Positions 14,181-64,000 of a stretch of DNA of 64,000 bases are shown here, in pieces. Within the stretch, counting starts at the first letter, position 1. Every line of letters starts with the position of its first letter. This stretch comes from Octopus vulgaris (Eukaryota): NCBI GenBank assembly GCA_951406725.2, contig OX597827.1, forward strand, positions 74,958,001-75,022,000. Direction: 5' to 3'. A program made the translations under genes and the position numbers. The notes under the pieces are model-generated. The model saw nothing but the letters and a program-made list of their open reading frames with translations, did not search any database and was not told where the DNA came from.

Positions 14181-14215
<35 letters not shown>

Positions 14216-30037: not shown

Positions 30038-30072
<35 letters not shown>

Positions 30073-33000
30073 GAGTGAGAGAGCAGTGCATGCCATCAAA
30101 GTGACACTGGGGTAAAATATACGAAGCCCAGTATACACATCATGACTACCCGTCTGATAAGGGTACACATGCATCACAACTATATGTGCGCAACATGGTG
30201 ATCTCATATCAAGATAAATAGCGCAGACGACTATTTCAAGCAATTAGTTAGATGTCTTCAGGCACACAATCTTCTGCCATCTGCCTCCTAAGTACACGCT
30301 GTGCCACCCTTGCATACTTTGTTATCTTCCCTGTTAGCACACGTTCTTTGCCCATGTTAGTATACTATGTAGTCAACGTTGACAATACATGTTATTACTT
30401 CCCTTGTCATCACAAGTTGTCGTTCCCTGTGATGTACCCCTAGCTGTACCCCTTGTTAGTATACTTTGTTATGTTGTTAGCTTAGGCTGTTGTTTCTCTA
30501 GTTTGTATATCTTGTTGTCTCCCTTGTTTTTATATTTTGTTGAAAAAGCAAGTACATTGTTAGTACACTGTTCCATGTCACACACAGTACTGTCACCCTT
30601 GTTGGTAATCTTTGCTATATCTTGTATTAGCATCTCAGAATACATAACTAAAAAGAACAACAATTGCAATACACAATGACAACAGAAAGCAAACGTTATT
30701 AACCTTCTTTACAAGTGCCTGAAGTGAAACCAGGTGGACATCCATGTGGGCATATTCCAGTGACTCTGTCGCACACGTCCTTATCTCGACAGTTGCATTC
30801 CTCATTACAGCCAGAACCATACTTTCCAGGAGAACACTCTGAAAAGAACAATTTCTTTTAATATCCACCAGATTTGATGTTAAACAGACTCTGTTAAAGT
30901 TTAAAATATCAGATACACTTTACTGACTACATGAATTAAGAATTAGAAGAGACAAGTTAAAAGCTACCGAAAGAATTATGTGAAGGATTTCCTTACGATG
31001 CCATTTATCAAATGCTGTTTCTGTTATTGCGGAGTTCAGTTTAAAATCAGATACGATGAGCATATCTATAATAGTTGATCGAAAGAGTAAGTGCAAGTCA
31101 CAGATCTATTACACTTGATATACGAAGCCTTCACCACTTGGTGGGCCTTCGCACTAATACATCCTGAATATGAATTATTGTCAGTTGGGACATGTGTTTC
31201 TTTTTTTGCCCAGTCTATTTTTGTATGCTTGTCGGTTCAAGTGATGAACTCCTCGAGGACAAATGTGAAATCTAGAGAGCGCTTAAGGTGGTTCTTGGAG
31301 TTGTTTGGCCCCAAAACAATGACCACCCAGCTTATTTTCAGAGAGTGTATACAGTATCTGAATAGCTAAATTATCTTATGTATTCTTTCTTTGTATACGA
31401 GGGTAGTGTGTGATTTGAGGAAGATTTGGCTACTATTTCTTGCAGGTCAGGATTGTGTGTGTGTGTGTGTGTGTGTTTTCCTTGGACGGATATTCTCTTC
31501 AGAATAGTGTTGAAATTGTTGTTGCTTCGATCACTGTTAGCCTTGATCAGATATCTAAGGTATTCCGTCATTCGCTGTTGGTTTTAAGTGTAAAATATCT
31601 TTTTAAGATGGAGAATGCAATTTGAATGGCATTTGGCTGCTATTTTTAACAAATCAATCAATCCTACAAAATTTCTTTCATGGTCCTTTGGTGTTGTAGC
31701 AGTGTTGGGCTGTGTAACAGATATATTTGAAGGAGTATGAGAGATTGATATTGCAGTAGTTGTGAAGGCGTTGTATATGGAAATGTTTGCTAACGGAGTT
31801 ATAGAGATTGTAAGGGTTAGATTTTGCTGTACCAACACAATTTGTTCTTCGCTAGCTTTGGAGTGATTACATTTTTAGGGTTCACTTAGAATGAGGAATG
31901 AAAGTAACATATGAAGGTGATGCATATCTGTTATTGGAAGTTATGTGCAGTTTAAGATTAAAAGGAATGGGTAGAGTTCGGGTCTTTGTGGTAACTATAC
32001 GGAATTTCTCTTATATTTCATGGCTTAAATATTTTTAAAATCTTTACTCTTATCTAAACATATATTTTGAGTAACTACTATACCAATAGTTGCCCCTGTT
32101 AAGTACTACTCAACAAAATCGCATATGTCTGCTTATAAACTGTCCGCTCTACAAGTCAGACACTCAGACTTCAGAAATCCGATCCTTTTCTTCCAAAGAC
32201 TTGGTGGATTAAACTATCTTCTAATCTCTGTCATTAACTCTTTGTTGATTAATCCATTATCTCCAATTTGACAGAGAAATTAGGAGAGGTATTTTATTTC
32301 TTCCGAAACTGACCTTCTCTGATGTCTAAATTTACTTTTCTTTACTATATATGAACTTCTCTATTTTACGAATTTTAATAATCTTGTAATAATACCCAAA
32401 CTGGGCGTTGCAATACAATGATTTACCTCGAGGTGTAATTAGATGTGCCACGACAATAATACAATATTTTAAAGCAGAAAAGACAAAATAATGTACTTAA
32501 TATAAAGTACTTCCTTTATTTACTAGCATTACATGTAAAAAAATAGATTGAAGAAGAAATAAGGTATGTATAAATCTCATAAAGATGTGTTAAGTAGCTG
32601 TTTTTGTTTCGATTCTGTTTGAAAATTTAATTAAATATGACTAGATTTAATACATGCACATCTTCATCATTTTAAACTTTGTGTATCGTATCTCCCACTA
32701 AAAGCCGATTTTTTCAAGAAGGAAAAAAATATTGGATTAGTTCTATATTCTTGACGCCAAAAGGATGAAAGGAAAAATTGGTTTAATCGACTGATACTGA
32801 TATCTCCCAAATTTTTCGAAGTATGAAATCTACAGCTGAAAATGAATCTTTAATGTCTTCATAGTCGTATTTGCACTTTAAGATTGAGTGAGAATATAAA
32901 TTCCAACAGCTATAGTATTCTTGTAAGAAAATAGGTACGTTTATCTTTAATAAATTCAAACATTGAAATATATTGATAAAAATATCAATATCCGTTTCTC

Positions 33001-40698: not shown

Positions 40699-43600
40699 GA
40701 TAATAATAATAATAATAATGATAATGATGATGATGACAATGACGACGACGACGACGATAATGATGATTTTGCAACAAGGGCAGCAAGTTCGGGGTAGGTG
40801 ATGAGTTGATTTCATCGACCTCAGTACTCAACGACTACTTACTTTATCGACCCTGAAAGGATAAAAGGCAAAGTCGACTTGGGAGTAATTTGAACGTAAA
40901 GAAGAAGAAGGAGGAGGAGAGGAGGAGAAGTAGAAGAAGAAGAAGACGAACAACAACAACAACAACATGATCATCTTTATCATCATTAAGATATTTATGT
41001 ACTGAGTGCATTAGATACGGAGAGGTAACTTTACCTGTGTGGGTGTTACTTCCACAAATTTTAGGATGTTAAACATGTTTGTTGTTCACATTTACTTCCC
41101 TCAGTTTTCATTAATAATCTCTATATATATAAACGGCAAAATGTCTGCGTGCGTGTCCTTTATACAAATCCACAATTTTTCAGTTAGAGGGCTCGCACTT
41201 TCTATGGTCATTCAAAACCGTCCAAGGCTAGTCGAGCACATCTTTACATTTCCCCAGTCACCCTGTAAAGCCATTAAAAAATCAATAGAAGTGACTTTTT
41301 TGTGAATTTTCTTTCCAAAACCAATCAAAATGCCCAAAACTTGATATGCCAATTGAATGCCAGCTAGCTGTATGTGATTGGTCGGAGATTTGGACAGTAC
41401 TCGCGTGTATGTGTGCACGCACGCAGCTGTATATGCATGCACTAGCACTATGACCCGGCGTTGCCGGGTCATAGTGCTAGTTCAACATAACTCAATACTT
41501 AGCAAAATAAGTATTTATATACTTATGCCCTTGTAGAGAGTACGACAACTTGAATTAATCAATACATGTATATATACAATACCTATATACAATACATGTA
41601 TATAGGTGAGATAGACATTGTTAAAGTAAGATTATAACAATCAAAATTTTAAGTAAGACATCTCAATATCAAATAGAAAAAAATTTTTAATGAGTTTATG
41701 CACTTGTATCCCACTTAATTAAAGTTAAGAACAATCATGTGTGTGAGTTGTGGGGTTTTAGTTTGATTATTAGTATAGACATATACTTACGTTCCTGACA
41801 GTCGGAACCCCTGTATCCAGTTGCACAGCCTCTAGGACATGCACCATGAATCGGGTTGCAGTTGTCATCATCAATACAATTACATGTTTTGTTGCAATGT
41901 AGTCCATATGTGCCTTCATCGCAGACTGTAAAACAAACGTATTATACCTTATGTTGCATAAAACGGTAAAGAACTCCTTTCATAAATGAAAAGATGGAAA
42001 AAAATCAATGAATGACTGATGACCAAGACAACCATAATAGGAAATGATTTAACCAACTACGGCGCCTCAATATTTTCGATTGATCTGCTAGTAACAGCGA
42101 CCAAATCTTCCTCAAACAATACCCTGTTAGACTACAAACAAGAAACATTAAACAATGGAGACCTAAATATCTCTTAAGATGGCCACGGGTGGAATATCTA
42201 TAACCGTAGATCTTTCTAATCAGTCAGGATTCATCAGAATATAAACAACAGCAGTAATAGTGGTTGAATAACATAGGACTGCCTTCTCGATCTGAGTTTA
42301 CCTAAATGCAAATAACATCATCAGCAACAACAAAAGCAATGATATACAAATAAATAAGAAAGCCAATCTCTCAGCAATCGCTCAACTTCCTAGTACATCG
42401 TATCAACGAGGGAACTGACTTGGGCTTCATCTTTACCATAAAGTTTGAGGTCATCCATGAATAACAAGTGGTTGACTATTTGTTGCTGGCTTTTGAATAC
42501 ATACCCAGCTTTTGCTTTCCTGAGAATCAGCGTTAGTGGTATCAAGCACAGTACAAAGATCAATGGAGACAGGCAGTCCTCTTGGAAGATGCCTTTCTGA
42601 TTTCTACTTTCCCTAAACTTCTTTCGTATGCTGCCAGGTCCATCCTCCAATTCACCATACTTTTTCCAAGCAATCGCTCAACATTCGATGCAATACCAAA
42701 TAGGTTCATACATTCCATAATCCAAGAATGTAGGATCATATTGTACGCCTTACGATAGTCGATCCATGACATGGCTAAGTTACTTTTCCTCCTCTTACAG
42801 TCTCTAAAAACAGTTTTGTCTATCAGGAGTTGATCCTTGGTACCTCTGCACTTACGCTTGCAACCCTTCTGCTCATGTGGCAGGACTCCAAATTTTTTTC
42901 GAGATGTTCGTACATTGACTCTGCGAGTATTCCAGTTAATAATTTCCACGTAAGTGGCAAACAAGATATTGGCCAGTAGTTGTGTACCATATTGCCTTTT
43001 TCGATGTTTTTCAAGCACGGCACTGTCCTACCCAATGTCAACCACTCTGGTGTTACTTGGTCGGCATTTAACAAGGTGTTGATTTGTGCAGCTATTCATG
43101 CATAACATTCACCAAATCATTTGATCCAGTAGCCTTGAACTCCATCTGATCCCGGGGCCTTCCAGTTGCTCTTTGTTTTTTTTTTTGCTTATTTCCTTCA
43201 CTTTCCGTACTGAAATGACTAGTCCTGTCTGTTTTGGACAGACTACTGTTTGTTTCAGTTCTTGCAACCATAACCATTCAGCATCCTTTTCGTGCTCCTT
43301 ATCTTTGCTCCAGATGTCACTCGAACATCTTTGACTTTCATTGTTATCTGGTATCAACTTTTCATCTGTACATTCTCCATTTATTCCTTTATGGAATCTC
43401 TTCTGATCTACTCTGAATAACCCATGCTGGTGGTAACCCTTCATTCTTTGGTCATATCTTACCATCTTTGCTTTCTTTGCAATGAAGTGCTGTTTCAGTT
43501 CTTCTATTACCACTTTCAGGCCCTTTCTTTCAGTATCATACTTCCTGTTCGGTGTCATGTATTTTTATTCGTTTTTAAGTAACCTCTTCTCTTTTCGGTT

Positions 43601-45817: not shown

Positions 45818-48800
45818 GAGTGAGAGAGCAGTGCATGCCATCAAAGTGACACTGGGGTAAAATATACGAAGCCCAGTATACCCATCATGACTACCCGTCT
45901 GATAAGGGTACACCAGGCACATGCATTCCAACTATATGTGCGCAAGATGGTGATCTCATATCAAGATAAACAGCGCATTACCTTGCAGGTGGGGCACAGT
46001 TAGAATTTTCTACTGGTCGAGTAACCCATCCCGCTCAAAAGGTCTCTGAATAAAGGTTGTTTAAGGATGTTGAACAAAACACCCTTTCTACTTTTCTTAG
46101 CCACTCTGCGCTTTCTTTATATCTCGCCGGATTCTTCTACAGTCTTCCTCCAAATTCTTTACTTTCTTCCGCATGTCAAATCAGTTCTTAATGTTGGCAT
46201 CCCTCTGTTTCCTCATATAGATGTCTTCTATTTTATTGGATCAGTCTATGCTATTCGAAACCTTTGCATTTATCATCATTTTTTTTTATTAATTTGGCTT
46301 TTTTTTGTGTCAATTCTTCCATCCGTTTCATATTCTTCCTGTTTTACCCTTTCATTACCGCTCTCTGCTACCGTTGTTTCACTCTCCTTCTGCTAATTTA
46401 TTATTATGTTTATCTGAATTTCTTCAATCTCTACTGCCATAACCCAGTCGTCCCCACACATTACTCTTGTTTAGTCTATCAGTCACAGGGCGGATACTTC
46501 AAAGCCTCCTTTCTTCATCCAAATATTCTCTTTATTTGATTCATGAAGCCTCTTTTATTTGGCTCACTTCTCAGCCAGTATTCGATTACTATTTAGTTTA
46601 CTTCTTTTCCCCCATTTCATTCTTTTTATTTTGCACTTTTGACTGCGACTTTGGTCCTGACCAATAGCTTGATGACAATCTGCCAGAACTTGACCAGATA
46701 CTCCCTGCCTGCCGAGCGCGACATCTTTACCGTTTACAGTTCCAATCCTGTTAGTGCAGTTGTGGTTATTATTTAATTTTGACATCACTCATTTAGAGGT
46801 ACCATTTGTAAGATTGTGCAACCACCAGTATTTTTATTGTGACACCATCACTAGGTGAGTTGCTAGTCAAGGCTCTGAGAGTCCACATCTACCCTCGTGT
46901 ACAGTTTTTAGTGTCATTCTTGTTCATTCCAACGTTTTATATTTTTATATTTGACATTTTCACTTTAGCAGCAATGAGAAACTGGACGCTGAAGAAAGTA
47001 GGAGTTTTTAGAGTAACATCTGAGATAATGGAAGAAATCACCAGAAAGATGCTTGAAAGAATTAAGATCCGAGAAAATTTAAATGGAACAGAGCAGTATA
47101 CGAATATCAACTGAAATGGTGACCGAGAAGACAACAATGATCTCAAACTGGAAGTGTCCTGGCTCGGATGGGGTACAAAGGTAATGGCTGGATAATTTCC
47201 CAGAATTATACAAAAGAATAGATATGCAAATGGATAAAATGATCAACAACAGGGTATAAATCCCAAAATGCATTGCCACAGGGAAAACAGCTCTTTACCA
47301 AAAAGGACTCCAGTAAATGTAATGCAGTGGAAAATTACCGGCCATTCTCCTGCTTACTACTGATTTGGAAGTTGATGTCAGGAATGTAACTAACTGTGCG
47401 TATGACATGCTGAAAATAACTGACAAGCTGCCAGTGGAACAGCAGAGATGCACATAGGCATTGATATGTAGTACCCAGGAACAAACCCTGAGAAATAATT
47501 ACTCCAAGGTCCAAATAGACAAGAACAATGAATCGCTCCTTTGTGGGTTTATGGCATCAAAAAAACGAAATAATCTCACATATTGTGAGTGAATTTAGCA
47601 AACTAATCCAAAAAGAATACAAAAAGAGGCACGATAACAGGGCTAAGTTTGTTCACTAGAGATTGCATGAGAAGTATGGTCTTGAAAGAACACAGACAAA
47701 GCCTGTTAAAATATAGTAGGCTACTATAGAACAACACACAGAAAATACTAAAGGCAGTGAATAGAGAGCAGGTGGTCAAATGTGGAAATAGGAGGAAAAG
47801 ACGAAAATGATATTCAAAGAGAGCATTATAAACAGATTGAAAAGAAACCTCTGCATGGTCAGTATTTGAAAGCCACTGAAGATGTACGTGAAACAAAAAT
47901 CTGGGCTTCATTAAAAACAAAAGGGCATTTAAAAAAAGAAACAGAGTTCCTTTTAAAGCAGCTGAAGATAAAGCTATAAAAACAAATAATTTGAAAAAAA
48001 ATATGTGTATGGGGAGGTGTCAGCAAAATGTAAAGTGTGAGGTATTTGAGATAAAACAATGGTGCACATTGTTGCAGAATATCCCAGGTTGGCTCATACA
48101 GAATATACGAAATGGAGACATGACCAAGTATTGCAAGTTTTTCACTGGGCGCTTCATCAGAAATGGGGATTTGAAGCTCAAAGTACTTGGTATCACCATT
48201 GGGTTGAGAGGGTGCTTGAGTCGGAGAAAGCAAGATTTTATGGGATTTTCCCATTCAAACAGATAAGAAGCTAGGAAATAATAAACCAGATATAACAATA
48301 ATAGACAAGGAAAGGCAAAGTTGCTTACTAATTGATCCATCGTGTCCGTTCGATTCCAGGATTGTTAAGAAAGAAGAAAAACATTTTAATATCCAATCCT
48401 TTAAAATTTGAAATTGCAAGAATTTGGAGCATGAAATATGTACAGGTTGTGTCTGCAATAATTGGTGCATTAGGATCTGGGAGTAAGGATATAGATGAAT
48501 GGTTGGAAGAGATTGGAATAGAATGTCCTGAAGAGCTTCCACAGAGAGTTTGCCTCTTAGGGACAGGAAAGATTATCAGAAGGGTTTTCAGCACTTGAAA
48601 GATTAACGAAAGCTTGAGGATATATAAAGTTACTGGTAGTAACCCATTACCCACATAAATTCTAGCAAGAATAAGAACGAACCTGAGTCAAATAATATCT
48701 TTTATTATTACAGGAACAACAAAAGAGTCGATTTCGCAAGGACAAATTAGAAAGCGAAACAAAAAATATACTTGAAAAGAAAATCCTCAAGAGAGTAGGT

Positions 48801-51800
48801 TGACGGGGTAATTTTCAGTCAAATGAGGAAAAGAATTACACTAGGCCAATCACAGAAGGCCAGATAAATTCTGTCAGGTGAAGTCCTAACATAAAATTCG
48901 TCCATAAGTGATTTGAACTAAATATATTCACTTTGAAATTACTTCATAATTCCAATGGTATAATCAGTTGTTTCATACTCACATGCTTGACAGTTTATAC
49001 CCTGATATCCAGCAACACATCCATGAGCACACTGACCATATATTGGGTTGCAACTGTCGTCATTACAATGACAGGTTTTACTACAGTTATCTCCATATGT
49101 GCCTTTAGGGCATGCTGAAAAAAACCCAGAAGAAACACATTTTAACTTACGAATTTATTGTTGCCTTTTAAATATCAGTAACAGAATATTACTGGCATCA
49201 TAGTCGACGCCAGCTGAAGGCAGAAACATATTCTCTTGCAAATTTCACAGAGATTTCCTGAAGCTTCCAGATGGTTTGTTTCATTCACAAGGCTTGAATC
49301 AAACCAGGACTTTCACAGAAGATATTTGCCAAACTTTTTTTGCATCGAAATCGAACCTTAAACAAGCTAAACTAGCTTCTTAATAAATCAACCAACCCAA
49401 AACTTTGTAAAGTCAAAAACTTTAACCAACAGAAATCTAAAAATGTATAAGACAGACGACTATTTCAAACAATTAGTTAGATGTCTTCAGGCACACAATC
49501 TTCTGCCATCTCCCTCCTTAGTACACGCTGTGCGACTCTTGCATACTTTGTTATCTTCCCTGTTAGCACACGTTCTTCGCCCATGTTAGTATACTATGTA
49601 GTCAACGTTGATAATACATGTTATTACTTCCCTTGTCATCACAAGTTGCCGTTCCCCTGTGATGTACCCCTTGCTGTACCCCTTGTTAGTATACTTTGTT
49701 ATGTTGTTAGCTTAGGCTGTTGTTTCTCTAGTTTGTATATCTTGTTGTCTCCCTTGTTTTTATATTTTGTTGAAAAAGCAAGTACATTGTTAGTACACTG
49801 TTCCATGTCACACACAGTACTGTCACCCTTGTTGGTAATCTTTGCTATATCTTGTATTAGCATCTCAGAATACATAACTAAAAAGAGCAACAATTGCAAT
49901 ACACAATGACAACAGAAAGCAAACGTTATTAACCTTCTTTACAAGTGCCTGACGTGAAACCAGGTGGACATCCATGTGGGCATTTTCCAGTGACTCTGTC
50001 GCACACGTCATTATTTCGACAGCTGCATTCCGAATTACAGCCAGTACCATACTTTCCACCAGGACACTCTGAAAAGAACAACTTCTTTTAATATTCACCA
50101 GATTTGACGTTACACAGACTCTGTTAAAGTTTAAATATCAGATTCACTTTACCGACTACATGAATTAAGAATTAGAAGAGACAAGTTAAAAGCTACCGAA
50201 AGAATTATGTGAAGGATTTTCTTACGATGCCATTTATCAAATGCTGTTTCTGTTATTGCAGAGTTCAGTTTAAAATCAGATACGATGAGCATATCTATAA
50301 TAGTTGATCGAAAGAGTAATTGCAAGTCACAGATCTATTACACTTGATATACGAAGCCTTCACCACTTGGTGGGCCTTTGCACTAATACATGCTGAATAT
50401 GAATTATTGTCAGTTGGGACATGTGTTTTTTTTTTTGCCCAGTCAATTTTTTGTATGCTTGTCGATCCAAGTGATGAACTCCTCGAGGACAAATGTGAAA
50501 TCTAGAGAGCGCTTAAGGTGGTTCTTGGAGTTGTTTGGCCCCAAAACAATGACCACCCAGCTTATTTTCAGAGTGTATACAGTATTTGAATAGCTAAATT
50601 ATCTTATGTATTCTTTCTTTGTATAAGAGGGTAGTGTGTTGTTTGAGGAAGATTTGGCTACTATTTCTTGCAGGTCAGGATTGTGTGTGTGTGTGTTTCC
50701 CTGGATGGATATTCTCTTCAGAATAGTGTTGAAATTATTGTTGCTTCGACCACTGTTAGCCTTGATCAGATATCTAAGGTATTCCGTCATTCGCTGTTGG
50801 TTTTAAGTGTAAAATATCTTTTTAAGATGGAGAATGCAATTTGAATGGCATTTGGCTGCTATTTTTAACAAATCAATCAATCCTACAAAATTTCTTTCGT
50901 GGTCCTTTGGTGTTGTAGCAGTGTTGGATTGTGTAACAGATATGTTTGAAGGAGTATGAGAGATTGATATTGCAGTAGTTGTGAAGGCGTTGTATATGCA
51001 AATGTTTGCTAATGGAGTTATAGAGATTGTAAGGGTTAGATTTTGCTGTACCAACACAATTTGTTCTTCGCTAGCTTTGGAGTGATTTAATTTTTAGGGT
51101 TCACTTAGAATGAGGAATGAAAGTAACATATGATAGTGATGCATATCTGTTATTGGAAGTTATGTGCAGTTTAAGATTAAAAGGAATGGGTAGAGTTCGG
51201 ACCTTTGTGGTAACTATACTGAATTTCTCTTATATTTCATGGCTTGAATATTTTAAAAATCTTTACTCTTATCTAAACATATATTTTGAGTAACTACTAT
51301 ACCAATAGTTGCCCCTGTTAAGTACTACTCAACAAAATCGCATATGTCTGCTTATAAACTGTCCGCTCTACAAGTCAGACACTCAGACTTCAGAAATCTG
51401 ATCCTTTTCTTCCAAACACTTGGCGGATTAAACTATCTTCTAATCTCTGTCATTAACTCTTTGTTGATTGATCCATTATCTCCAATTTGACAACGAAATT
51501 AGGAGAGGTGTTTTATTTCTTCGGAAACTGACCTTCTCTGATGTCTAAATTTACTTTTCTTTACTATATATGAACTTCTCTATTTTACGAATTTTAATAA
51601 TCTTGTAATAATACCCAAACTGGGCGTTGCAATACAATGATTTACCTTGAGGTGTAATTAGATGTGCCACGATAATAATACAATATTTTAAAGCAGAAAA
51701 GACAAAATGATGTACTTAATATAAAGTACTTCCTTTATTTACTAGCATTACATGTAAAAAAAAATTGATTGAAGAAGAAATAAGGTACATTTATCTTTAA

Positions 51801-54800
51801 TAAATTCAAACATTGAAATATATTGATAAAAATATNNNNNNNNNNNNNNNNNNNNNNNNNNNNNNNNNNNNNNNNNNNNNNNNNNNNNNNNNNNNNNNNN
51901 NNNNNNNNNNNNNNNNNNNNNNNNNNNNNNNNNNNTCCTGTTCGGTGTCATGTATTTTTATTCGTTTTTAAGTAACCCCACCTGTATTCTTCTACATTTT
52001 TTGCTACCATGGATTTTTTTTCTTTTTGTCACTGCCCATTGATATATCTTGTTTCTGTAATGTAATGACTTTCGGGAGCATACTTAACCCCACCTGTATT
52101 CTTCTTTTCTACCATGGATTTTTTTTCTTTTGTCACTCCCATTATATATCTTTTTCTTGACATCATCATCTACATTTTCTGCTACAGCAATACTTGCTGC
52201 CTTGATCAAATTTTTGTTTCTGTAATGTTTTTTTGTTCTCGTGTATTTCAGAATTTCATGTCTCTCATCGAGCAAGTTATCACTGTTCCTTTCCTGTGGT
52301 TTATTAGAGATCTCACCTCTGCTTTCTACTATGAGATTACTTTTATCAGTAAGAACAGCATTTTCATCGTTTCCTCTACTGCTGTTTCCCAATACCCGTC
52401 TTTTGATAGCTTCGAGCTATACTTCCGGGAACCAACGATTTTTTTTCTTATTTCTCTATCTTGATCACATAATCTCTGTTCTGTGTATTGAAACTATCCT
52501 CTCTCTTTCTTTGATCATACATAAGTTGTCGGTATCCCCTAATATATGAACAATATTTTCGTCTACAGGGTTAGGGTTGCTCAGGTAGTAACATTCCATG
52601 ACCACAGCATTGATTTGTTAGTTCCATCTAATCTGTGTGGTCGGATCCCTTGCTGGATAACGACAGGCTGGAGTCAGGCCTGTAGCTCTGAGCCTGCCAA
52701 GTGCAACGCTGTCACAATCATGGATTTCAGTTTCATTACTACCATTATTCACAATATTTTTCATCGTCACTCATATGAGATAGCGATTATCAGATTGCAC
52801 AATTACCAGTGTTTTTATTGTGACCCCATCACTAGATGTACCATCAATCAGGACATGGGAAGTTTCCAATCGCTAAGCAGCTAATATGAAACCTTCACTC
52901 TCTGCTTTTAGCCCTGAACTTCGTAACCATTGGTGCGTGTGTTTCTGGTCGATATCAGCTTGTTTGCTACAGGCCACATACTTGCCATGGAAAGGTTTCG
53001 GTTCCCATCTGCTAGCTAAATTTTCATGTGCTTTTGTCTTTGCAATTAATTTTATTTTCTTTGCAGCTGTAGTTGGCGCATTTCCTTCAGCCTGCTCAAT
53101 CTGGTGGGTATCTAAGAGATCAGCAGCAAATTTTTTGCTCTCTTTGAGAATAGAATGAATTTTTTTAGGCCTTTCATGTTTTTCAACAAGTTTTAGCATC
53201 CAATCGTTGGTTGCTTCAAGGTATTTGGACAGTCCAATTGTTGTGGTTTTGTATGTAAGTTCAAGCTGGATCAAACCTCGACCTCCCTGAGCTCTGGGAA
53301 GGTAAAGGCGATCCACGTCTGCCTTTGGATGGTGCATCTTATTACAAGTCAGTAGCTTGCGGATTTTCCTGTCAATTTTCATCATTATTAGTATTATTAT
53401 TATTATTGAGTGAGAGAGCAGTGCATGCCATCAAAGTGACACTGGGGTAAAATATACGAAGCCCAGTATACCCATCATGACTACCCGTCTGATAAAGGTA
53501 CACCAGGCACATACATCACAACTATATGTGCGCAACATGGTGATCTCATATCAAGATAAACAGCGCATTACCTTGCAGGTGGGGCACAGTTAGAATTTTC
53601 TTCTGGTCGAGTAACACATCCCACTCAAAAGGTCTCTGAATAAAGGTTGTTTAAGGATGTTGAACAAAACACCCTTTCTAGTTTTGTTAGCCACTCTGCG
53701 CTTTCTTTATATCTCGCCGGCTTTTTCTACAGTCTTCCTCCAAATTCTTTACTTTCTTCCGCATCTCAAATCAGTTCTTAGTGTTGGCGTCCCTCTGTTT
53801 CCTCATATAGATGCCTTCTATTTTATTGGAACAGTCTATGCTATTCGAAACCTTTGCATTTATCATCATTTTTTTTATTAATTTGGCTTTTTTTTGTGTC
53901 AATTCTTCCATCCGTTTCATATTCTTCCTGTTTTACCCTTTCATTACCGCTCTCTGCTACCGTTGTTTCACTCTCCTTCTGCTAATTTATTATTATGTTT
54001 CTCTGAATTTCTTCAATCTCTACTGCCATAACCCAGTCGTCCCCACATATTACTCTTATTAGTCTATCAGTCACAGGGCGGATGCTTCAAAGCCTCCTTT
54101 CTTCATCCAAATATTCTCTTTATTTGATTCATGAAGCCTCTTTTATTTGGCTCACTTCTCAGCCAGTATTCGATTACTATTTAGTTTACTTCTTTTCGCA
54201 TTTCATTCTTTTTATTTTGCACTTTTGACTGCGACTTTGGTCCTGACCAATAGCTTGATGACAATCTGCCAGAACTTGACCAGATACTCCCTGCCTGCCG
54301 AGCGCGACATCTTTACCTTTTACATTTCCAGTCCTGTTAGTGCAGTTGTGGTTACTATTTAATTTTGACATCACTCATTTAGAGGTACCATTTGTAAGAT
54401 TGTGCAACCACCAGTATTTTTATTGTGACACCATCACTAGGTGAGTTGCTAGTCAAGGCTCCGATAGTCCACATCAACCCTCGTGTACAGTGTTTAGTGT
54501 CATTCTTGTTCATTCCAATGTTTTATATTTTTATATTTGACATTTTCACTCCTGGGAATTTTTGTTAAGGCGGCTAGCTGGTAGAGTCGTTAGCACGTTG
54601 GACGAAATGCTTAATAGTATTTCACCCATCGTTACATTCTGAGTTCAAATTCCATCGAGATCGACTTTGCCTTTCCTGCTTTCAGGGTTGATAAATTAAG
54701 AACCAGCGGAGACACTGGGGTCGATGTATTCGACTGGTCCCCTCCCCAAAACTTCAGGCCTTGTGCCTTTACTAGAAAAAGATAATTGTTGTTGTTGTTT

Positions 54801-57800
54801 TTGTTATCTCAACTGAATCACAAGTGTCGAATCGTCGTGAGACTAAACCAGCAACTCCCACAGAACCTGCTCTGTGGAGAGTGTATTTTTCTTGCTATTT
54901 GCTAACCCTTCAGGATGAAATACAAGCCTGTTGAAGAGTAGATGAACTCAGGGGAGTCAGCGGTCACCTACACAGCAACTTTTCATTAGTTGTGCATCCG
55001 ATTAGATCATTACCGCTCAGAGTACTGGGTTGGTGTACAATGCAAATAGCTTACTTAAACTTTCAAAGGTAATGGCTGGAAAATTTCCCAGAATTATACA
55101 AAAGAATAGATATGCAAATGGATAAAATGATCAACAACAGGGTATAAATCCCAAAATGCATTACCACAGGGAAAATAGCTCTTTACCAAAGACGACTCCA
55201 GTAAATGTAATGCAGTGGAAAATTACCGGCCATTCTCCTACTTACTACTGATTTGGAATTTGATGTCAGGAATGTAACTAACTGTGCGTATGACATGCTG
55301 AAAATAACTGACAAGCTGCCAGTGGAACAGCAGAGATGCACATAGGCATTGATATGTAGTACCCAGGAACAAACGCTGAGAAATAATTACTCCAAGGTCC
55401 AAATAGACAAGAACAATGAATCGCTCCTTTGTGGGTTTATGGCATCAAAAAAACGAAATAATCTCACATATTGTGAGTGAATTTAGCAAACTAATCCAAA
55501 AGGAATACAAAAAGAGGCACGATAACAGGGCTAAGTTTGTTCACTAGATATTGCATGAGAAGTATGGTCTTGAAAGAACACAGACAAAGCCTGCTAAAAT
55601 ATAGTAGACTACTATAGAACAACACACAGAAAATACTAAAGGCAGTGAATAGAGAGCAGGTGGTCAAATGTGGAAATAGGAGGAAAAGACGAAAATGATA
55701 TTCAAAGAGAGCATTATAAACAGATTGAAAAAAAAATCTGCATGGTCAGTATTTGAAAGCCACTGAAGATGTACGTGAAACAAAAATCTGGGCTTCATTA
55801 AAAACAAAAGGGCATTTAAAAAAGAAACAGAGTGCCTTGTTAAAACAGCTGAAGATAAAGCAATAAAAACAAATAATTTGAAAAAATATGTGTATGGGGA
55901 GGTGTCAGCAAAATGTAAAGTGTGAGGTATTTGAGATAAAACAATGGTGCACATTGTTGCAGAATATCCCAGGTTGGCTCATACAGAATATACGAAATGG
56001 AGACATGACCAAGTATTGCAAGTTTTTCACTGGGCGCTTCATCAGAAATGGGGATTTGAAGCTCAAAGTACTTGGTATCACCATTGGGTTGAGAGGGTGC
56101 TTGAGTCGGAGAAAGCAAGATTTTATGGGATTTTCCCATTCAAACAGATAAGAAGCTAGGAAACAGTAAACCAGATATAACAATAATAGACAAGGAAAGG
56201 CGAAGTTGCTTACTAATTGATCCATCGTGTCCGTTCGATTCCAGGATTGTTAAGAAAGAAGAAAAACATTTTAAAATCCAATCCTTTAAAATTTGCAATT
56301 GCGAGAATTTGGAGCATGAAATATGTAAAGGTTGTTCCTGCAATAATTGGTGCATTAGGATCTGGGAGTAAGGATATAGATGAATGGTTGGGAGAGATTG
56401 GAATAGAATGTCCTGAAGAGCTTCCACAGAGAGTTTGCCTCTTATGGACAGGAAAAATTATCAGAAGGGTTTTCAGCACTTGAAAGATTAACGAAAGCTT
56501 GAGGATATATAAAGTTACTGGTAGTAACCCATTACCCACATAAATTCTAGCAAGAATAAGAACGAACCTGAGTCAAATAATATCTTTTATTGTTAGAGGA
56601 ACAACAAAAGAGTCGATTTCGCAAGGACAAATTAGAAAGCGAAACAAAAAATATACTTGAAAAGAAAATCCTCAAGAGAGTAGGTTGGCGGGGTAATTTT
56701 CAGTCAAATGAGGAAAAGAATTACACTAGGCCAATCACAGAAGGCCAGATAAATTCTGGCAGGTGAAGTCCTAACATAAAATTCGTCCATAAGTGATTTG
56801 AACTAAATATATTCACTTTGAAATTACTTCATAATTCCAATGGTATAATCAGTTGTTTCATACTCACATTCTTGACAGCTTTTACCCCGATATCCAGCAA
56901 CACATCCATGAGCACAAGTACCATATGCTGGGTTGCAACTGTCGTCAATACAATGACACTGTTTATGACATTTATCTCCAAATGTGCCTTTAGGGCATAC
57001 TGAAAAAAATAACAGAAGAAACACGTTTTAACTTACGAATTTATTGTTGCCTTTTAAATATCAGTAACACAATACTACTGGCATCATAGTCAACGCCAAC
57101 TCAAGACAGAACCATATTCTTTTGCAAATTTCACAGAGATTTCCTGAAGCTTCCAGATGGTTTGTTTCATTCACAAGGCTTGAATCAAACCAGGACTTTC
57201 ACAGAAGATATTTGCCAAACGTTTTTTGCATCGAAATCGAACCTTAAACAAGCTAAACTAGCTTCTTAATGAATCAACCAACCCAAAACTTTGTAAAGTC
57301 AAAAACTTTAACCAACAGAAATCTAAGAATGTATAAGACAGACGACTATTTCAAGCAATTAGTTAGATGTCTTCAGGCACACAATCTTCTGCCATCTCCC
57401 TCCTTAGTACACGCTGTGCGACTCTTGCATACTTTGTTATCTTTCCTGTTAGCACACGTTCTTCGCCCATGTTAGTATACTATGTAGTCAACGTTGACAA
57501 TACATGTTATTACTTCCCTTGTCATCACAAGTTGTCGTTCCCTCTGATGTACCCCTTGCTGTACCCCTTGTTAGTATACTTTGTTATGTTGTTAGCTTAG
57601 GCTGTTGTTTCTCTAGTTTGTATATCTTCTTGTCTCCCTTGTTTTTATATTTTGCTGAAAAAGCAAGTACATTGTTAGTACACTGTTCCATGTCACACAC
57701 AGTACTGTCACCCTTGTTGGTAATCTTTGCTATATCTTGTATTAGCATCTCAGAATACATAACTAAAAAGAACAACAATTGCAATACACAATGACAACAG

Positions 57801-57953
57801 AAAGCAAACGTTATTAACCTTCTTTACAAGTGCCTGAAGTGAAACCAGGTGGACATCCATGTGGGCATATTCCAGTGACTCTGTCGCACACGTCCTTATC
57901 TCGACAGTTGCATTCCTCATTACAGCCAGAACCATACTTTCCAGGAGAACACT
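3978..57953 (-). CDS. Partial multi-exon gene: multiple EGF-like (laminin-EGF type) repeat protein, MEGF10/CED-1/SCARF-like ectodomain; 10 exons visible, both ends outside the window or not found
   Basis: Ten 132/135-nt exons with a polypyrimidine-AG acceptor and GT donor, all phase 1-1, no internal stops, each with 8 Cys in the pattern C-x2-G-x-[YF]-G-x2-C-x3-C-x-C-x4/5-C-x4-G-x-C-x2-G-C-x2-G-x5-C. Junction codons from A3 to C1 are all sense (GCA, TTC, CAG, GTC, CAG, GTA, TTC). That they form one transcript is inference. Confidence 0.8.
4578..6593 (-). mobile_element. Degenerate R4/Dong-like non-LTR retrotransposon, 5' part to RT core (paralogs 26676-28697, 42390-44414, 51936-52873)
   Basis: Frameshifted RT motifs [31 protein letters not shown], WIDYx[25 protein letters not shown]. 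Confidence 0.9.
6594..7103 (-). mobile_element. Remnant of a second R4/Dong-like element (3' end deleted in copies 1 and 4; paralog 52873-53382)
   Basis: [21 protein letters not shown]...HGKY...[18 protein letters not shown]. Confidence 0.9.
7128..8160 (-). mobile_element. Internally deleted R4/Dong-like element next to (TAA)n (paralogs 45818-46860, 53408-54440; truncated at 30072-30225)
   Basis: N-terminal-like peptide on the minus strand; 5' sequence (gtgacaccatcactag) similar to that of the 4578-6593 element; abuts a TAA repeat. Confidence 0.55.
8290..8505 (+). mobile_element. tRNA-derived SINE, present in copies 1 and 4 (54567-54785), absent in copy 3
   Basis: GGCGGCTAGCTGGTAGAGTCGTTAG A-box region, GAGTTCAAATTCC B-box, GATCGACTTTGCCTTTC core. 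Confidence 0.85.
8790..10300 (+). mobile_element. Degenerate, internally deleted R4/Dong-like LINE with restriction-like endonuclease (paralogs 46965-48690, 55068-56580)
   Basis: [47 protein letters not shown]...[20 protein letters not shown]. Confidence 0.85.
10590..10721 (-). CDS. EGF-like exon B1: [44 protein letters not shown]
   Basis: ttatttttttcag|TATGCCCT...CAAGAAT|gtgagt; 132 nt; lies within ORF-track entry 10546..10746. Confidence 0.9.
11541..11675 (-). CDS. EGF-like exon A1: [45 protein letters not shown]
   Basis: ttgttcttttcag|AGTGTTCT...AAAGAAG|gttaat; 135 nt; the ORF track reports a different frame here. Confidence 0.88.
13590..14030. mobile_element. Two old degenerate SINE remnants in opposite orientations
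   Basis: aaaaggatgaaaggaaaaattgac (minus) and gaagttcaaattctgttgac...tttccatccttcc (plus) resemble the SINE core. Confidence 0.45.
14163..14232. repeat. (GTA)n/(GCA)n microsatellite (also 33728-33787, 60441-60519)
   Basis: Direct reading. Confidence 0.95.
14445..16250 (+). mobile_element. 5'-truncated CR1-group LINE (RT), three single-site frameshifts, (ATT)n tail
   Basis: [77 protein letters not shown]. Confidence 0.95.
16253..16378. repeat. (ATT)n followed by (AAT)n, a self-complementary microsatellite pair (also 35801-35866, 62543-62654)
   Basis: Direct reading. Confidence 0.95.
16530..18460 (+). mobile_element. Degenerate L1/Tx1-like LINE 5' part: ORF1 and start of APE endonuclease (paralogs ~36030-37710, ~62810-64000)
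   Basis: ORF1-like ...[18 protein letters not shown]; [31 protein letters not shown] matches the APE N-terminal motifs (NVRGL, xET). Confidence 0.65.
18460..18960 (-). mobile_element. L1/Tx1-like APE endonuclease fragment, opposite orientation (paralog 37710-38200)
   Basis: [12 protein letters not shown]...[10 protein letters not shown]...FRLVALYIP; the copy-2 paralog reads [31 protein letters not shown]. Confidence 0.7.
19072..19168. repeat. (CT)n(AT)n microsatellite (paralog 38324-38433 has different lengths)
   Basis: Direct reading. Confidence 0.95.
19422..19950 (-). mobile_element. Solo LTR (529 bp) with 4-bp TSD
   Basis: TGTA...TACA ends; GTTG duplicated at 19418-19421 and 19951-19954; single GTTG at the empty site 38681-38684; AATAAA on the minus strand near 19550. 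Confidence 0.85.
19951..21460 (-). mobile_element. Degenerate L1/Tx1-like ORF1 region (paralog 38685-40190)
   Basis: Same peptide as 1-950 plus a low-complexity N/T/K-rich tail; oriented toward the minus-strand APE fragment. Confidence 0.5.
22556..25500 (+). mobile_element. Two head-to-tail Helitron-like copies (22556-24029 and 24030-25500)
   Basis: Exact junction ...GATACTGCTAG|TCTCTTATTATAAAAGG; each carries the piggyBac fragment. Confidence 0.85.
26076..26210 (-). CDS. EGF-like exon C2: [45 protein letters not shown]
   Basis: tttgttttacag|TCTGCGAA...CAGGAAC|gtaagt; 135 nt, 8 Cys. Confidence 0.9.
28730..30040 (-). mobile_element. 5'-truncated R4/Dong-like element with Zn knuckle and RLE, inserted in (TAA)n (paralog 44470-45775)
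   Basis: [54 protein letters not shown]; TAA repeats on both sides. Confidence 0.92.
30704..30838 (-). CDS. EGF-like exon A2 (identical to A1 by eye)
   Basis: Same splice sites and sequence as 11541-11675. Confidence 0.88.
33994..35800 (+). mobile_element. CR1-group LINE, copy 2 (stops and frameshifts)
   Basis: Same RT motifs, with in-frame TAA/TGA and small deletions. Confidence 0.95.
41791..41925 (-). CDS. EGF-like exon C3: [45 protein letters not shown]
   Basis: tttgttttacag|TCTGCGAT...CAGGAAC|gtaagt; 135 nt; 3 nt different from C2. Confidence 0.9.
48983..49114 (-). CDS. EGF-like exon B3: [44 protein letters not shown]
   Basis: gggtttttttcag|CATGCCCT...CAAGCAT|gtgagt; 132 nt, 8 Cys. 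Confidence 0.9.
49934..50068 (-). CDS. EGF-like exon A3: [45 protein letters not shown]
   Basis: ttgttcttttcag|AGTGTCCT...AAAGAAG|gttaat; 135 nt, 8 Cys. Confidence 0.88.
51836..51935. other. Assembly gap (100 N)
   Basis: Run of N; exactly 100 N usually marks a gap of unknown size. Confidence 1.
56868..56999 (-). CDS. EGF-like exon B4 (identical to B1)
   Basis: Same sequence and splice sites as 10590-10721. Confidence 0.8.
57819..57953 (-). CDS. EGF-like exon A4 (identical to A1)
   Basis: Same sequence and splice sites as 11541-11675. Confidence 0.8.
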
Positions 57954-60458
57954 CTGAAAAGAACAATTTCTTTTAATATCCACCAGATTTGATGTTAAAC
58001 AGACTCTGTTAAAGTTTAAAATATCAGATACACTTTACCGACTACATGAATTAAGAATTAGAAGAGACAAGTTAAAAGCTACCGAAAGAATTATGTGAAG
58101 GATTTCCTTACGATGCCATTTATCAAATGCTGTTTCTGTTTTTGCGGAGTTCAGTTTAAAATCAGATACGATGAGCATATCTATAATAGTTGATCGAAAG
58201 AGTAAGTGCAAGTCACAGATCTATTACACTTGATATACGAAGCCTTCACCACTTGGTGGGCCTTCGCACTAATACATCCTGAATATGAATTATTGTCAGT
58301 TGGGACATGTGTTTCTTTTTTTGCCCAGTCTATTTTTGTATGCTTGTTGGTTCAAGTGATGAACTCCTCGAGGACAAATGTGAAATCTAGAGAGCGCTTA
58401 AGGTGGTTCTTGGAGTTGTTTGGCCCCAAAACAATGACCACCCAGCTTATTTTCAGAGAGTGTATACAGTATCTGAATAGCTAAATTATCTTATGTATTC
58501 TTTCTTTGTATACGAGGGTAGTGTGTGATTTGAGGAAGATTTGGCTACTATTTCTTGCAGGTCAGGATTGTGTGTGTGTGTGTGTGTGTTTCCTTGGACG
58601 GATATTCTCTTCAGAATAGTGTTGAAATTGTTGTTGCTTCGACCACTGTTAGCCTTGATCAGATATCTAAGGTATTCCGTCATTCGCTGTTGGTTTTAAG
58701 TGTAAAATATCTTTTTAAGATGGAGAATGCAATTTGAATGGCATTTGGCTGCTATTTTTAACAAATCAATCAATCCTACAAAATTTCTTTCGTGGTCCTT
58801 TGGTGTTGTAGCAGTGTTGGGCTGTGTAACAGATATGTTTGAAGGAGTATCAGAGGTTGATATTGCAGTAGTTGTGAAGGCGTTGTATATGCAAATGTTT
58901 GCTAACGGAGTTATAGAGATTGTAAGGGTTAGATTTTGCTGTACCAACACAATTTGTTCTTCGCTAGGTTTGGAGTGATTTAATTTTTAGGGTTCACTTA
59001 GAATGAGGAATGAAAGTAACATATGAAGGTGATGCATATCTGTTATTGGAAGTTATGTGCAGTTTAAGATTAAAAGGAATGGGTAGAGTTCGGGTCTTTG
59101 TGGTAACTATACGGAATTTCTCTTATATTTCATGGCTTAAATATTTTTAAAATCTTTACTCTTATCTAAACATATATTTTGAGTAACTACTATACCAATA
59201 GTTGCCCCTGTTAAGTACTACTCAACAAAATCGCATATGTCTGCTTATAAACTGTCCGCTCTACAAGTCAGACACTCAGACTTCAGAAATCCGATCCTTT
59301 TCTTCCAAAGACTTGGTGGATTAAACTATCTTCTAATCTCTGTGCATTAACTCTTTGTTGATTAATCCATTATCTCCAATTTGACAGCGAAATTAGGAGA
59401 GATATTTTATTTCTTCGGAAACTGACCTTCTCTGATGTCCAAATTTACTTTTCTTTACTATATATGAACTTCTCTATTTTACAAATTTTAATACTCTTGT
59501 AATAATACCCACACTGGGCGTTGCAATACCATGATGTACCTCGAGGTGTAATTAGATGTGCCACGACAATAATACAATATTTTAAAGCAGAAAAGACAAG
59601 ATAATGTACTTAATATAAAGTACTTCCTTTATTTACTAGCATTACATGTAAAAACAAATTGATTGAAGAAGAAATAAGGTATGTATACATCTCATAAAGA
59701 TGTGTTAAGTAGCTGTTTTTGTTTCGATTCTGTTTGAAAATTTAATTAAATATGACTAGATTTAATACATGCACATCTTCATCATTTTAAACTTTGTGTA
59801 TCCTATCTCCCACTAAGAGCCGATTTTTTCAAGAAGGAAAAAAATATTGGATTAGTTCTATATTCTTGACGCCAAAAGGATGAAAGGAAAAATTGACATT
59901 AGTGGTATTTGAAATCACTGTACAAATATTCTTAAGAAATACTGCAAGGTACCCTATTCGATGTTTTAACACCTCTGCCTCTTCTGCGTCTATTGGCATT
60001 CATTATATTGGGAAAGTCATTTTTTATGTCAGGAATGTAGTGCAATGAAATTACCTGTGAAGTATATTACTGACACAGAAAAAAGATACTAAATTTAAAG
60101 AATTGTTACAGTGTATTGCAAAATCCTTGCAGTATTTAGCTTTGGCCATTTAAGTCTAAAGTTCAAATTCTGTTGACATTAACTCCACTTTCCATCCTTC
60201 CAGAATTAATAATATTAAAAAAAATTTACCAATACCGGAATTGGTTTAATCGACTGATACTGATATCTCCCAAATTTTTTGAAGTATGAAACCTACGACT
60301 GAAAATGAATCTTTAATGTCTTCATAGTCGTGTTTGCACTTTAAGATTGAGTGAGAATATAAATTCCAACAGCTATAGTATTCTTGTAAGAAAACACCCA
60401 GGAATTATTAACTTTGAAACATATTCTACAAAATGTTAACGTAGTAGTAGTAGTAGTA

Positions 60459-60502
<44 letters not shown>

Positions 60503-60729
60503 CCAGTAGCAGCAGCAGCAGGAGAAGGAATTCAAAAACTGGTGGAAGATACGGGGTAATTTATACTCAGAGCAGAGACGATCCGGAATGCGACAGAGTG
60601 GTTACTTCTAAAGGCAGCCAAGGAGTAGGTCATGATGTTAAAATGTGTAGTAGTAGTAGTAAGTATAATTTTTATGGCCGCCCTACTAAGGAGACACGGT
60701 ACCTCGAAGCTCAGTATGTTGTAGTAGTG

Positions 60730-62540
60730 CTTGAATTTGAACAGTGCATAGCAGCCAATCCTGACAGCAAGGTTTTCTGGATATATGTGCATTCAAAGCA
60801 GAGACCTCACTCTCCAGTGGGCCCTCTTCGCAACCCTCACACAAATCAGATCACTGACGACCCCAAGGAACGCGCAGAACTCATTGCCGAGTGCTATTCA
60901 AACATATTCACTGTTGAAAGTCAAAATGTACCATCTTCACCATCACTAACAGCAAATTCCATAACAACTATGGAATTTACACCTGCAATGCTGCGACGTC
61001 ACCTTCAAAATAAGTGCAACTATGCCTCCCCTGGTCTTGATGGAGTTACATACCTGCTTCTCAAACGTGGCAGGTACTTCCTTTTATACCAGCTTTCTAT
61101 TTTCTTCCAGTACTCTCTCAACAATGGTGCTACTCCGGAGCAGTGGAAAACTGCCAGTGTCATTCCTCTGTTCAAAAAGGGCGACCGCACATCACCTGTC
61201 AACTATCCCCCAGTCAGTCTCACTAGCTGTATTGCAAAACTGATGGAATCGTGTGTCAGAGAAACACTCTGGAACTTCTGGAGCTCTCACAGTCTCATCC
61301 GACCCTCACAATATGGATTTGTCCCTGACTCCAGCTGCAGTGATCAGCTTGTCGAGTTCCTTGAGGACATTACTCAGATCACTGACAGTGGCTCATGGGT
61401 GGATGTTGTCTACCTTGACTTTGCTAAGGCTTTCAACTCTGTGCCACACAAAAGGCTTATGGTGAAACTCTCTGCAATGGGTGTGAGGGATGACCTTTTT
61501 AACTGGTTGAAATCCTTCATTCTTAGCCGAAAGGAGGTAGTCACAGTTCTAGGACAGCATTCTACACCATATGAGATGTCATCGGGTGTACCACAGGGAT
61601 CTGTCCTTGGTCCCCTCTTGTTTGTGGCATACATTAATGACATAGATGCCAATTTAAAGAATGCCACAATATTGAAATATGCAGACGACATCAAGCTGTA
61701 CCTTGAAATCAAGAGGACAGATCCTGATGTCTACAACTCTTTCCTGCAATCAGACCTAGACACAATGCAGCAATGGATCACAGACTGGCAACTGAAACTG
61801 GCTGTGGACAAGTGTACCACCATGCATTTTGGGAGAAAAAACCCTGCGTCCACATACTCCCTCCACAACACTGATATCAAGAAATCCTCCTGCGAGCGTG
61901 ACCTAGGCATCACTGTCAGCAGTGATTTGCGTTGGACAAAGCATATCTCTAAAATTGTCGAGAAGGCCGAGGGTGTCTTGGCATCATTCAGCAAGACTTT
62001 TCTTTGCCACTCTCCAGCCATCTATTTAAAACTGTATACAGCTATGGTACGACCACACTTGGAATTCGCATCATCAGTTTGGAACCCCTATCTTGCTCAG
62101 AACATTGACCTCCTGGAATCTGTCCAGAGACGTGCAACCAAACGCATACCCTCCATCAGACACCTACCATATTCTGAGCGCCTTGTTTCCCTGGGCATGG
62201 ATTCACTGAAGCTCCGGCGTCTGGCGACGGACTTGATAAGCACCCACAGAGTTATCAACCACCTCACCAACAACAACACTGAACGCCTTCTTGATCTCCA
62301 TGTGTCTAACACATGTGGACATGCCTACAAAGTCAGAAAACAACACAGCTACCATGACTTTCGGGAACGTTTTTTCACGCTCAGAGTTGCTGAAGCATGG
62401 AATAAACTGCCTGCGTCAGTTGTTGACTGCCATGACACTACATCCTTTAAGGCCCTCATGCTTTCCGAAATCCGCCGAAACTACACCTGATTGTATATAC
62501 ACTTTAGATGAGTTGTAGTGCACCTGAGCACTGTACACAA
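60730..62540 (+). mobile_element. CR1-group LINE, copy 4: 5'-truncated but uninterrupted RT frame (630-aa ORF 60598-62490)
   Basis: ORF track; full RT motif set; no endonuclease domain. Confidence 0.95.
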
Positions 62541-62571
<31 letters not shown>

Positions 62572-62573
62572 AA

Positions 62574-62655
<82 letters not shown>

Positions 62656-64000
62656 TTTTTCGGAATTCTAAGGCACCGTTCTTTCGTTTCTTTTATCACC
62701 ACCTTGTTTCTGACATTGCCTGGACTGCGCGAATAGTTTTTTTGCTTAGTAATGCATTCTGTTTTGCGGGAGATGCGCATCAATTTTTTTTTTTTCCCGC
62801 CAACTAATGGAGAAGACAAATATTTTCTTATTTTACATATATATTGAAACATAGCTGATAAAGAATTCATTATAATGTTCAACGACGGGATGCGTTCCTT
62901 GTCGGAGAAAAAAGAGAATACTGGCATACCATTGACTACAGTATGTGACCACCGTGCCAGCGAAAAAGAAAACCGAGTTGAATATATTTTCGTCTCTAAA
63001 CAATGCTGAAACAGTGAAGTAGCAATTAAAGAAAACATACGAAGACGACGGCGACGATGACGACAACAACAACGTCGACAGCAATACCGATAATAACGAA
63101 GTGAAAGTTAAAGAAGGAAAGATAAACAAAGAAAATTTTAAAGGAAACGTGAACATCACTACCGCCATAGACGCCACAACAGTCTCCGCTGCAGCCGCTA
63201 AAGCAGCAAGGGATCCTGGAATTGGGATTTTTTTTATTTTATTTATTTTTTTTTTTGTAAATGCTACGAGAAATCTTGAAGATTTCCCCATCGACGAAGA
63301 AGAATTGAAATTGGCCCAAAAAATCGTTCAAAGAAATAGAAGAGAAGTTGCCCAAAACTCTCCACTCGACGTGATCGGAAACATCTTAAGATACTCGGTT
63401 ACATACTGCTGCATTGGAGTAAAATCGCTCCGAATGAAAAATGTTTCTGACAGCTAAATCCAGAAATGCTTTGAATGCGTGTGACAATAGAAGACCCACA
63501 TCATCCGAGGAAAGAAATTTTGGACGATTGAAGCTATTGCAGCTAACACCTTGCTAAAGTTGTGGTGATGAACGTGAAATATCGCCAGAAATATCCATCG
63601 CCAGAGGGATATGTCGCCAGATGGTTAGTGACCGCTGTCTTGGCAAGTATAGAGGAAGACAACGTGACTATCTTGGTGGTAAAGAAAATACCTCAACAAA
63701 ACTGGTCCTGTATAGGTATGAAACTAACATTACAATGTATGCAAACCTATATCGACGAGCTACCTAACCTAATAGGCCTCCCGGATGGTACTCACCTGTC
63801 AGTGTTAATGGAGGGTAGAAAACCAAGATGCTATATTTATGACTCATTGAAAGTTTTTCGGCCCTCAAGCAAGGAAAACAAAACTCCCACTGCTACCAAC
63901 ACCACAAACACAAAATCATGGAGACGAGCTCAAGATTGCTTCGCCCACACCAATACAAAGAAGTCTACTCCCGGCTACCACGGAAATCAAGCTTCACCTG

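Follow-up and report, generated by a model that had tools for sequence, protein, structure and literature searches.

Closest described systems

Among described genes, those closest to the octopus locus analysed here are molluscan receptor PTPs with multiple EGF-like repeats and a galactose-binding domain (MEGF/GBD RPTPs). This architecture occurs in a hyperdiverse schistosome-resistance region of Biomphalaria sudanica (SudRes1; PMC12297450), and in B. glabrata the scavenger class F-like receptors of LG5R known as 'subgroup 1C' are of the same kind (PMC13712769). In the available parts of these two papers, the snail receptors possess a GBD/fucolectin-like domain, EGF repeats, one transmembrane (TM) domain and tandem PTP domains, and occur as clustered paralogues with extracellular diversity and variation in EGF number; the octopus gene appears to be like them in each of these respects, its PTP exons being assigned to it by colinearity. 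It differs from SudRes1 and the 1C receptors in that its diversity is found among the repeats of one chain, with a formal omega>1. It also differs from MEGF/GBD RPTPs in that its first PTP domain lacks the catalytic Cys and in that C14, on which it lies, holds no detected antistasin neighbour: a search for such a neighbour as at the snail locus gave 2 matches of 82 candidates, on C6 and C10 and none on C14, and short exons may escape this search.

The 8-Cys repeat is like those of SCARF1/SREC-I, MEGF10/Draper and Tie2, and public models carry names such as 'MEGF10/MEGF6/draper-like'. SCARF1, MEGF10 and Draper are characterised by an EMI domain and an NPxY/ITAM tail with no PTP, and neither these proteins nor Tie2 are known to have a lectin-like head or a PTP tail. 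Orthology to MEGF10 or MEGF6 on the basis of the name was rejected, as the names reflect repeat similarity and the architecture differs.

Tandem copies whose coding sequences are far more divergent than their introns are found in snake venom PLA2 and conotoxin genes. In the Hessian fly SSSGP genes, coding divergence likewise greatly exceeds intron divergence, and the available part of the report attributes this to positive selection together with non-coding homogenisation (PMC2955719). All three groups are separate genes for secreted proteins, unlike the octopus case, which is an array of exons within one membrane receptor. Tandem modules with a fixed scaffold and selected variable positions are also known from the PRDM9 zinc-finger array and from Drosophila Eater/Nimrod; the octopus units are intron-containing triplets of about 20 kb, unlike those coding minisatellites.

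The receptor family and the exon-over-intron signature are thus each already known. A literature search with partial coverage of subscription journals yielded nothing on the present octopus gene, on pseudophosphatases among molluscan receptors or on an EGF array of this kind inside one gene; nor did it yield a published case of intragenic EGF amplification with diversification in a pseudophosphatase member. Little is known of immune and recognition receptors in cephalopods, and annotations fragment the present gene into 'MEGF-like' or 'hypothetical' pieces. The locus offers testable adaptive diversification among the repeats of one chain, in a family tied to parasite resistance in snails.

Structure of the gene

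The window is a stretch of 64,000 nucleotides of Octopus vulgaris DNA (C14:74958001-75022000 of the 2.8-Gb genome G000) and was analysed together with 200 kb on either side. The predicted O. vulgaris protein P0009 is an exact letter match to exons in the window. These exons appear to be part of one minus-strand gene of about 390 kb (C14:75181103 to 74793823), a single transcript being proposed because of colinearity and splice phase; public models split the gene. The layout was obtained by tblastn with O. bimaculoides XP_014769031.1 and the PTP protein P0159 of that species; on one strand, the matches run from the signal peptide through the lectin-like, EGF and TM exons to those of the PTP domains. 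Upstream of the array, on the same strand, are a signal-peptide exon, EGF exons and an F5/8C / F-type-lectin-like domain, the exons of this galactose-binding / fucolectin-like domain being located at C14:75126397 and 75106394; PF22633 and PF00754 score above cut-off in P0002, P0009 and P0007. Multiple extracellular EGF-like repeats are present, namely 23 array exons and the flanking EGF exons. The array is followed downstream by EGF exon D, the TM exon, a long exon of charged, low-complexity sequence and two PTP domains, whose tandem exons lie on the same strand and are linked to the array by colinearity only. The signal-peptide exon (C14:75181103) and the TM exon (C14:74876159) were called by sequence, match O. 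bimaculoides and are in phase with exon D. A separate gene for each unit was considered and rejected, as none of the homologue matches to a signal peptide or TM segment falls within the array. Contigs from X16 and X19, two of the six presumed-RNA runs associated with the stretch, contain repeat-derived intron pieces only and leave exons A3 and B3 uncovered, which has no bearing either way on expression.

The array extends over about 200 kb (C14:75093755 to 74891311) in units of about 20 kb, each built on exons A (135 nt), B (132 nt) and C (135 nt). All 23 array exons are in phase 1-1 with canonical splice sites. Eight independent units are found in a period-four order, alpha, beta, gamma, delta, twice over, of which the delta pair is the least clean. 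The features in the window are as follows, in window positions.

3978..4112, minus strand: alpha-type exon C of unit 5, with the same sequence as its counterpart in unit 1
10590..10721, minus strand: B1, the alpha-type exon B of unit 5, with the same sequence as its counterpart in unit 1, which lies outside the window
11541..11675, minus strand: exon A of unit 5 (alpha), array exon
26076..26210, minus strand: exon C of unit 4, array exon
30704..30838, minus strand: exon A of unit 4, a unit without exon B
41791..41925, minus strand: exon C of unit 3, 135 nt, phase 1-1
48654..48982, minus strand: donor-side intron of B3, the most homogeneous stretch of the array, one collapsed contig in two DNA runs
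48983..49114, minus strand: B3, the gamma-type exon B of unit 3, an EGF-like module of SCARF1/Tie2 type with 8 Cys, in phase 1-1 and differing by 1 residue from an O. sinensis module
49934..50068, minus strand: exon A of unit 3 (A3, gamma), 135 nt, phase 1-1
51836..51935, no strand: 100-N scaffold gap between two 99.5% identical 46-kb copies
52062..64000, no strand: start of the second 46-kb copy (twin of 5782-51835), with twins of B1 (56868-56999) and A (57819-57953)

Unit 4 (26076-30838) has lost its exon B through a deletion of about 3.8 kb, and its exons A and C are still in frame. When a profile of the array exons was compared with PDB, SCARF1 (8HNA) was the best match (E 3e-9), followed by Tie2 (E 2e-4). 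Pfam searches with individual array exons gave EGF matches that were all sub-threshold, and a single-sequence AlphaFold model of P0002 was unusable (pLDDT 38).

Over 46,154 aligned columns, the two 46-kb copies on either side of the gap are separated by 69 substitutions and 86 indel events, as against 131 and 10 in a true paralogue stretch. Forty of the 60 one-base indels between them fall in runs of at least 3, and one-base frameshifts disrupt two exons of the upper copy outside the window. The second copy is quite probably a false duplication, that is, an uncollapsed assembly overlap, and its 7 exons were excluded throughout, so that every count is based on 23 exons (8 A, 7 B, 8 C). The copies also carry a reverse-transcriptase-like open reading frame of 677 amino acids with a YADD motif, probably of the LINE class. 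It is open at 60457-62490 (plus strand) in the upper copy and split at 14179-16104 (plus strand) in the lower, so that one-base differences break frames in both copies.

Divergence of exons and introns

Exons B1 and B3 each have 132 nt with AG/GT ends, 43 whole codons and 8 Cys. The earlier note on this DNA had described them as paralogs with 18 nucleotide differences, 12 amino-acid changes, no silent-only codon and two codons altered at every base, beside a donor-side intron with about 4 differences in 329 nt, and recounting returns the same values. The 18 mismatches in 132 nt change 11 internal codons, all non-synonymously (F/Y, K/N, H/S, Q/T, I/N, A/I, T/Q, R/Q, K/I, S/N, E/A), with V/A in the split junction codon as the twelfth replacement; silent-only codons number 0, and all three bases are changed in CAG/ACC and ACT/CAG. 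The donor-side intron (48654..48982 against the B1 unit) has 4 differences in 329 (exon versus this intron, Fisher p 1.7e-7), and the acceptor-side intron has 20 in 819. The tenfold ratio of exon to intron divergence then proposed is right in its direction and too high in its figure, which comes from the part of the array where the units differ least (mean p 0.015); with the acceptor-side intron the ratio is about 6x, and over the whole array 5-8x (pN/intron), and the introns look homogenised. The exons are related copies, as the word paralogs implied, though they are repeats within one gene and not paralogous genes.

Because the pair contains only about 26 silent sites, dN/dS>1 is not demonstrable from B1 and B3 alone; the whole array does demonstrate it. 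Of 131 codons over the 23 exons, 69 vary in amino acid, 3 are silent-only and 59 are invariant. None of the 24 Cys columns varies as against 69 of 107 other columns (p 9e-10), which extends to the whole array the constancy of Cys reported for the pair, and no stop or Cys loss is found in any of the 23 exons. Mean pN/pS is 1.97 in A, 4.45 in B and 1.71 in C. Codon models were fitted with our own GY-type code on IQ-TREE trees, with junction codons excluded and recombination ignored, the input after collapsing identical copies being 7 A, 6 B and 7 C distinct sequences. Under M0, omega is 2.9 in A (p 0.03), 14 in B (p 4e-5) and 2.1 in C (p 0.05). M2a is preferred over M1a in all three (A p 3e-4, B p 3e-9, C p 3e-5), the omega>1 class taking up about 40% of sites, and remains so when double and triple mutations are allowed (A 0.024, B 4e-7, C 0.003). 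In B the sites picked out as selected are 3, 9, 11-13, 17, 18, 20, 23, 24, 27, 29, 37 and 40. With multi-base mutations the gene-wide omega loses significance in A (2.2, p 0.19) and C (1.7, p 0.26) and holds for B (p 1e-4).

Silent third positions vary at 3 of 62 sites, comparable to introns (101 of 1155, p 0.36), whereas first and second positions vary at 99 of 262, far above introns (p 4e-28). Along the units, diversity forms sharp peaks at the exons (0.15-0.17) over intron bins of 0.003-0.06. Diversifying selection, proposed earlier for the B exons from a single pair, is therefore upheld once more copies are added, by site models with an omega>1 class in A, B and C and by the positional profile. 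Together these sequence comparisons support positive selection on the copies, with replacements favoured and the strongest effect in B.

Two other EGF arrays served for comparison. The neighbouring array at C14:74.01-74.08 Mb (sets of 10 and 14 exons) has pN 0.07, pS 0.11 and 0.06, and intron divergence 0.09. The second, at C25:21082000-21235000 (L053-L069), contains about 40 EGF exons under purifying selection with unalignable introns; 23 of its exons, picked by motif, have pN 0.17 and pS 0.59. The exon-diversification signal is specific to this gene among the three EGF arrays compared, so that two sister arrays without the signal provide an internal control. Related receptors also form a cluster at C14 73.3-74.8 Mb, where 8 matches to PTP exons and numerous EGF exons, several of them near-identical, are spread over both strands.

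Comparison with other species was made at the protein level and with Logan contigs. Two O. sinensis proteins have 11 array-type modules, each of which differs by 0-3 residues from an O. vulgaris module. The modules of these proteins, P0001 and P0002, look like mosaics of O. vulgaris types; at B position 17, for example, alpha and gamma have exchanged Ile and Asn, as short conversions or a collapsed assembly might produce. When two independent DNA runs were compared, introns fall into single contigs (0-9 other letters) and exons into variant contigs (up to 21) among the matches listed; exon A3 has 0 other letters in X2 and 1 in X1, the records spanning 49954-50125 and most of the exon. O. bimaculoides XP_014769031.1 has the same domain order with one A-B-C triplet, which makes a natural comparison of a one-unit with an eight-unit species, and in the Argonauta relative P0080 the triplet is absent. 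Identity to O. bimaculoides is mostly 79-100% for PTP exons and 53-80% for extracellular exons.

Lectin-like head and phosphatase tail

Active classical PTPs possess the catalytic Cys in HCxxGxGR, a WPD loop and a KNRY loop. PTP domain 1 of the octopus gene (C14:74825783-74825940 and 74816614-74816760; L019, L018) has QS for HC, WPE and KNRD, with identical motifs in O. bimaculoides P0159, and domain 2 is also without the catalytic Cys, as in O. bimaculoides. A sequence check found the active motif set in neither domain; HC is kept in 38 of 39 homologues that bear the PTP signature. Catalytic activity has presumably been lost, and the protein would be a conserved receptor pseudophosphatase annotated as an active PTP, a point to which this locus draws attention.

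F-type lectins bind fucose through the motif His...Arg-x-Asp...Arg. Aligned with 3CQO, the octopus lectin-like domain has Ser for the His, which we take to be a fucose-binding residue, and Thr for the Asp, and keeps both Arg; this alignment does not recover the fucose-binding motif.

Possible function and alternative explanations

Our preferred reading, which we hold to be reasonably probable, is that the repeat modules form the stalk of a MEGF/galactose-binding-domain RPTP, in which one exon triplet was amplified and diversified, most likely for microbial or parasite ligands. The A-B-C triplet would have been multiplied from one to about eight, likely by unequal crossing-over. Specificity may thereby have moved from the lectin head to the lengthened and diversified EGF stalk; the EGF modules, rather than the lectin head, would bind ligands, each module likely presenting a different binding surface as selection diversified the non-Cys residues. 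Net charge differs by module type, the extremes being +4 in beta B and -5 in exon C of units 4 and 7. In SCARF1, as the available part of the report describes it, the EGF region is a long curved rod that binds ligands via positively charged residues (PMC11563577). The conserved tail could signal without catalysis, via scaffolding or phosphoprotein binding. As a driver, recognition of foreign ligands is judged the likeliest, at slightly better than an even chance, and is favoured because the same architecture marks hyperdiverse schistosome-resistance regions in Biomphalaria. The near fixation of module types in two species is unlike a fast-cycling host-parasite race and counts against an immune role, as does the failure to detect an antistasin neighbour on C14.

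A bolder version of this proposal seems unlikely. It holds that an octopus-lineage receptor dropped both the lectin His and the phosphatase Cys, and that its approximately 23 selected, in-frame EGF modules are spliced combinatorially as a counterpart of Dscam. If true, one gene would hold a germline repertoire for pathogens or for self/non-self, made from scavenger-receptor repeats.

Mutually exclusive or cassette splicing is the hallmark of Dscam-type arrays, and extreme allelic polymorphism among individuals that of allorecognition loci. A self/non-self or neural identity code, in which cassette splicing of module subsets yields homophilic or allorecognition labels, draws support from the symmetric phase 1-1 and canonical sites of all 23 exons, by which any module subset stays in frame, and from public models for the locus, predictions that use different exon subsets. 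Such phase symmetry is, however, usual for EGF exons of this kind and is found also in the C14 and C25 arrays. Allelic hypervariability left no sign: the twin copies share their exons bar two one-base indels, and run X2, over most of A3, has 0 other letters, in a comparison of few individuals by contigs only, with module types nearly fixed across two species. We regard this code as rather unlikely.

Sexual conflict acting on a gamete or reproductive-tract recognition protein would account for the strong omega>1, and repeated modules have precedents there, oyster sperm bindin having F-type lectin repeats and abalone VERL an array of repeats. VERL repeats are homogenised within species and divergent between species. 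The octopus modules, which differ within the chain and by 0-3 residues between species, follow the reverse of this pattern, and the relatives of the same architecture are tied to parasite resistance; a reproductive role is thus improbable. Allorecognition and gamete recognition both fit less well than foreign-ligand recognition because module types are nearly fixed across the two species.

History of the array

Exon p is 0.02-0.06 within and 0.16-0.19 between types, whereas intron p is 0.013-0.05 both ways. The types were named from the exons, and the period-four spacing supports them independently. Since introns hold no trace of the exon types, intron identity is likely to be partly homogenisation, apparently by conversion. 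The units may have come from a quick burst or from ongoing intron conversion with selection shielding the exon types; because both fit, intron identity is not a clean clock. The ancestor seems to have had a single A-B-C unit, as judged from one annotated outgroup model that could be a collapsed assembly. The 5'-most exon A has a Thr-His pair common to O. bimaculoides, a retention that would be expected at the edge of an array.

This history bears on the proposal that no acceleration took place, the exon types being old, conversion having erased intron and silent differences, and selection having kept the replacements. It would explain why introns are without type structure while exons are typed, and why the later doubling of four units left exon pairs whose divergence is close to that of introns. 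Against it, silent sites a few bases from replacements are still at intron level (3/62), which would need conversion tracts under about 10 bases, and the keeping of differences against conversion is itself selection for module diversity; we give it little credence.

Consensus errors or neutral drift in a decaying array are very improbable: the region does have a scaffold gap, one-base indel errors and what is probably a false duplication, but local errors are mostly indels and not codon replacements, the exon differences are not consensus errors because O. sinensis carries the same module types, which recur in independent DNA runs as well, and relaxed constraint, which would give omega near 1 and exon divergence near intron level, is at odds with both values and with 23 exons free of stops and Cys losses.

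Cytoplasmic exon

The cytoplasmic exon at C14:74859950-74863650 (L023) contains a tandem repeat of about 3 kb with a 72-nt period and Lys/Glu/Pro-rich units, with an open stretch of 948 residues. An apparent one-base frameshift is located near 74862750 in a run of A, and the O. bimaculoides model begins where the repeat ends.
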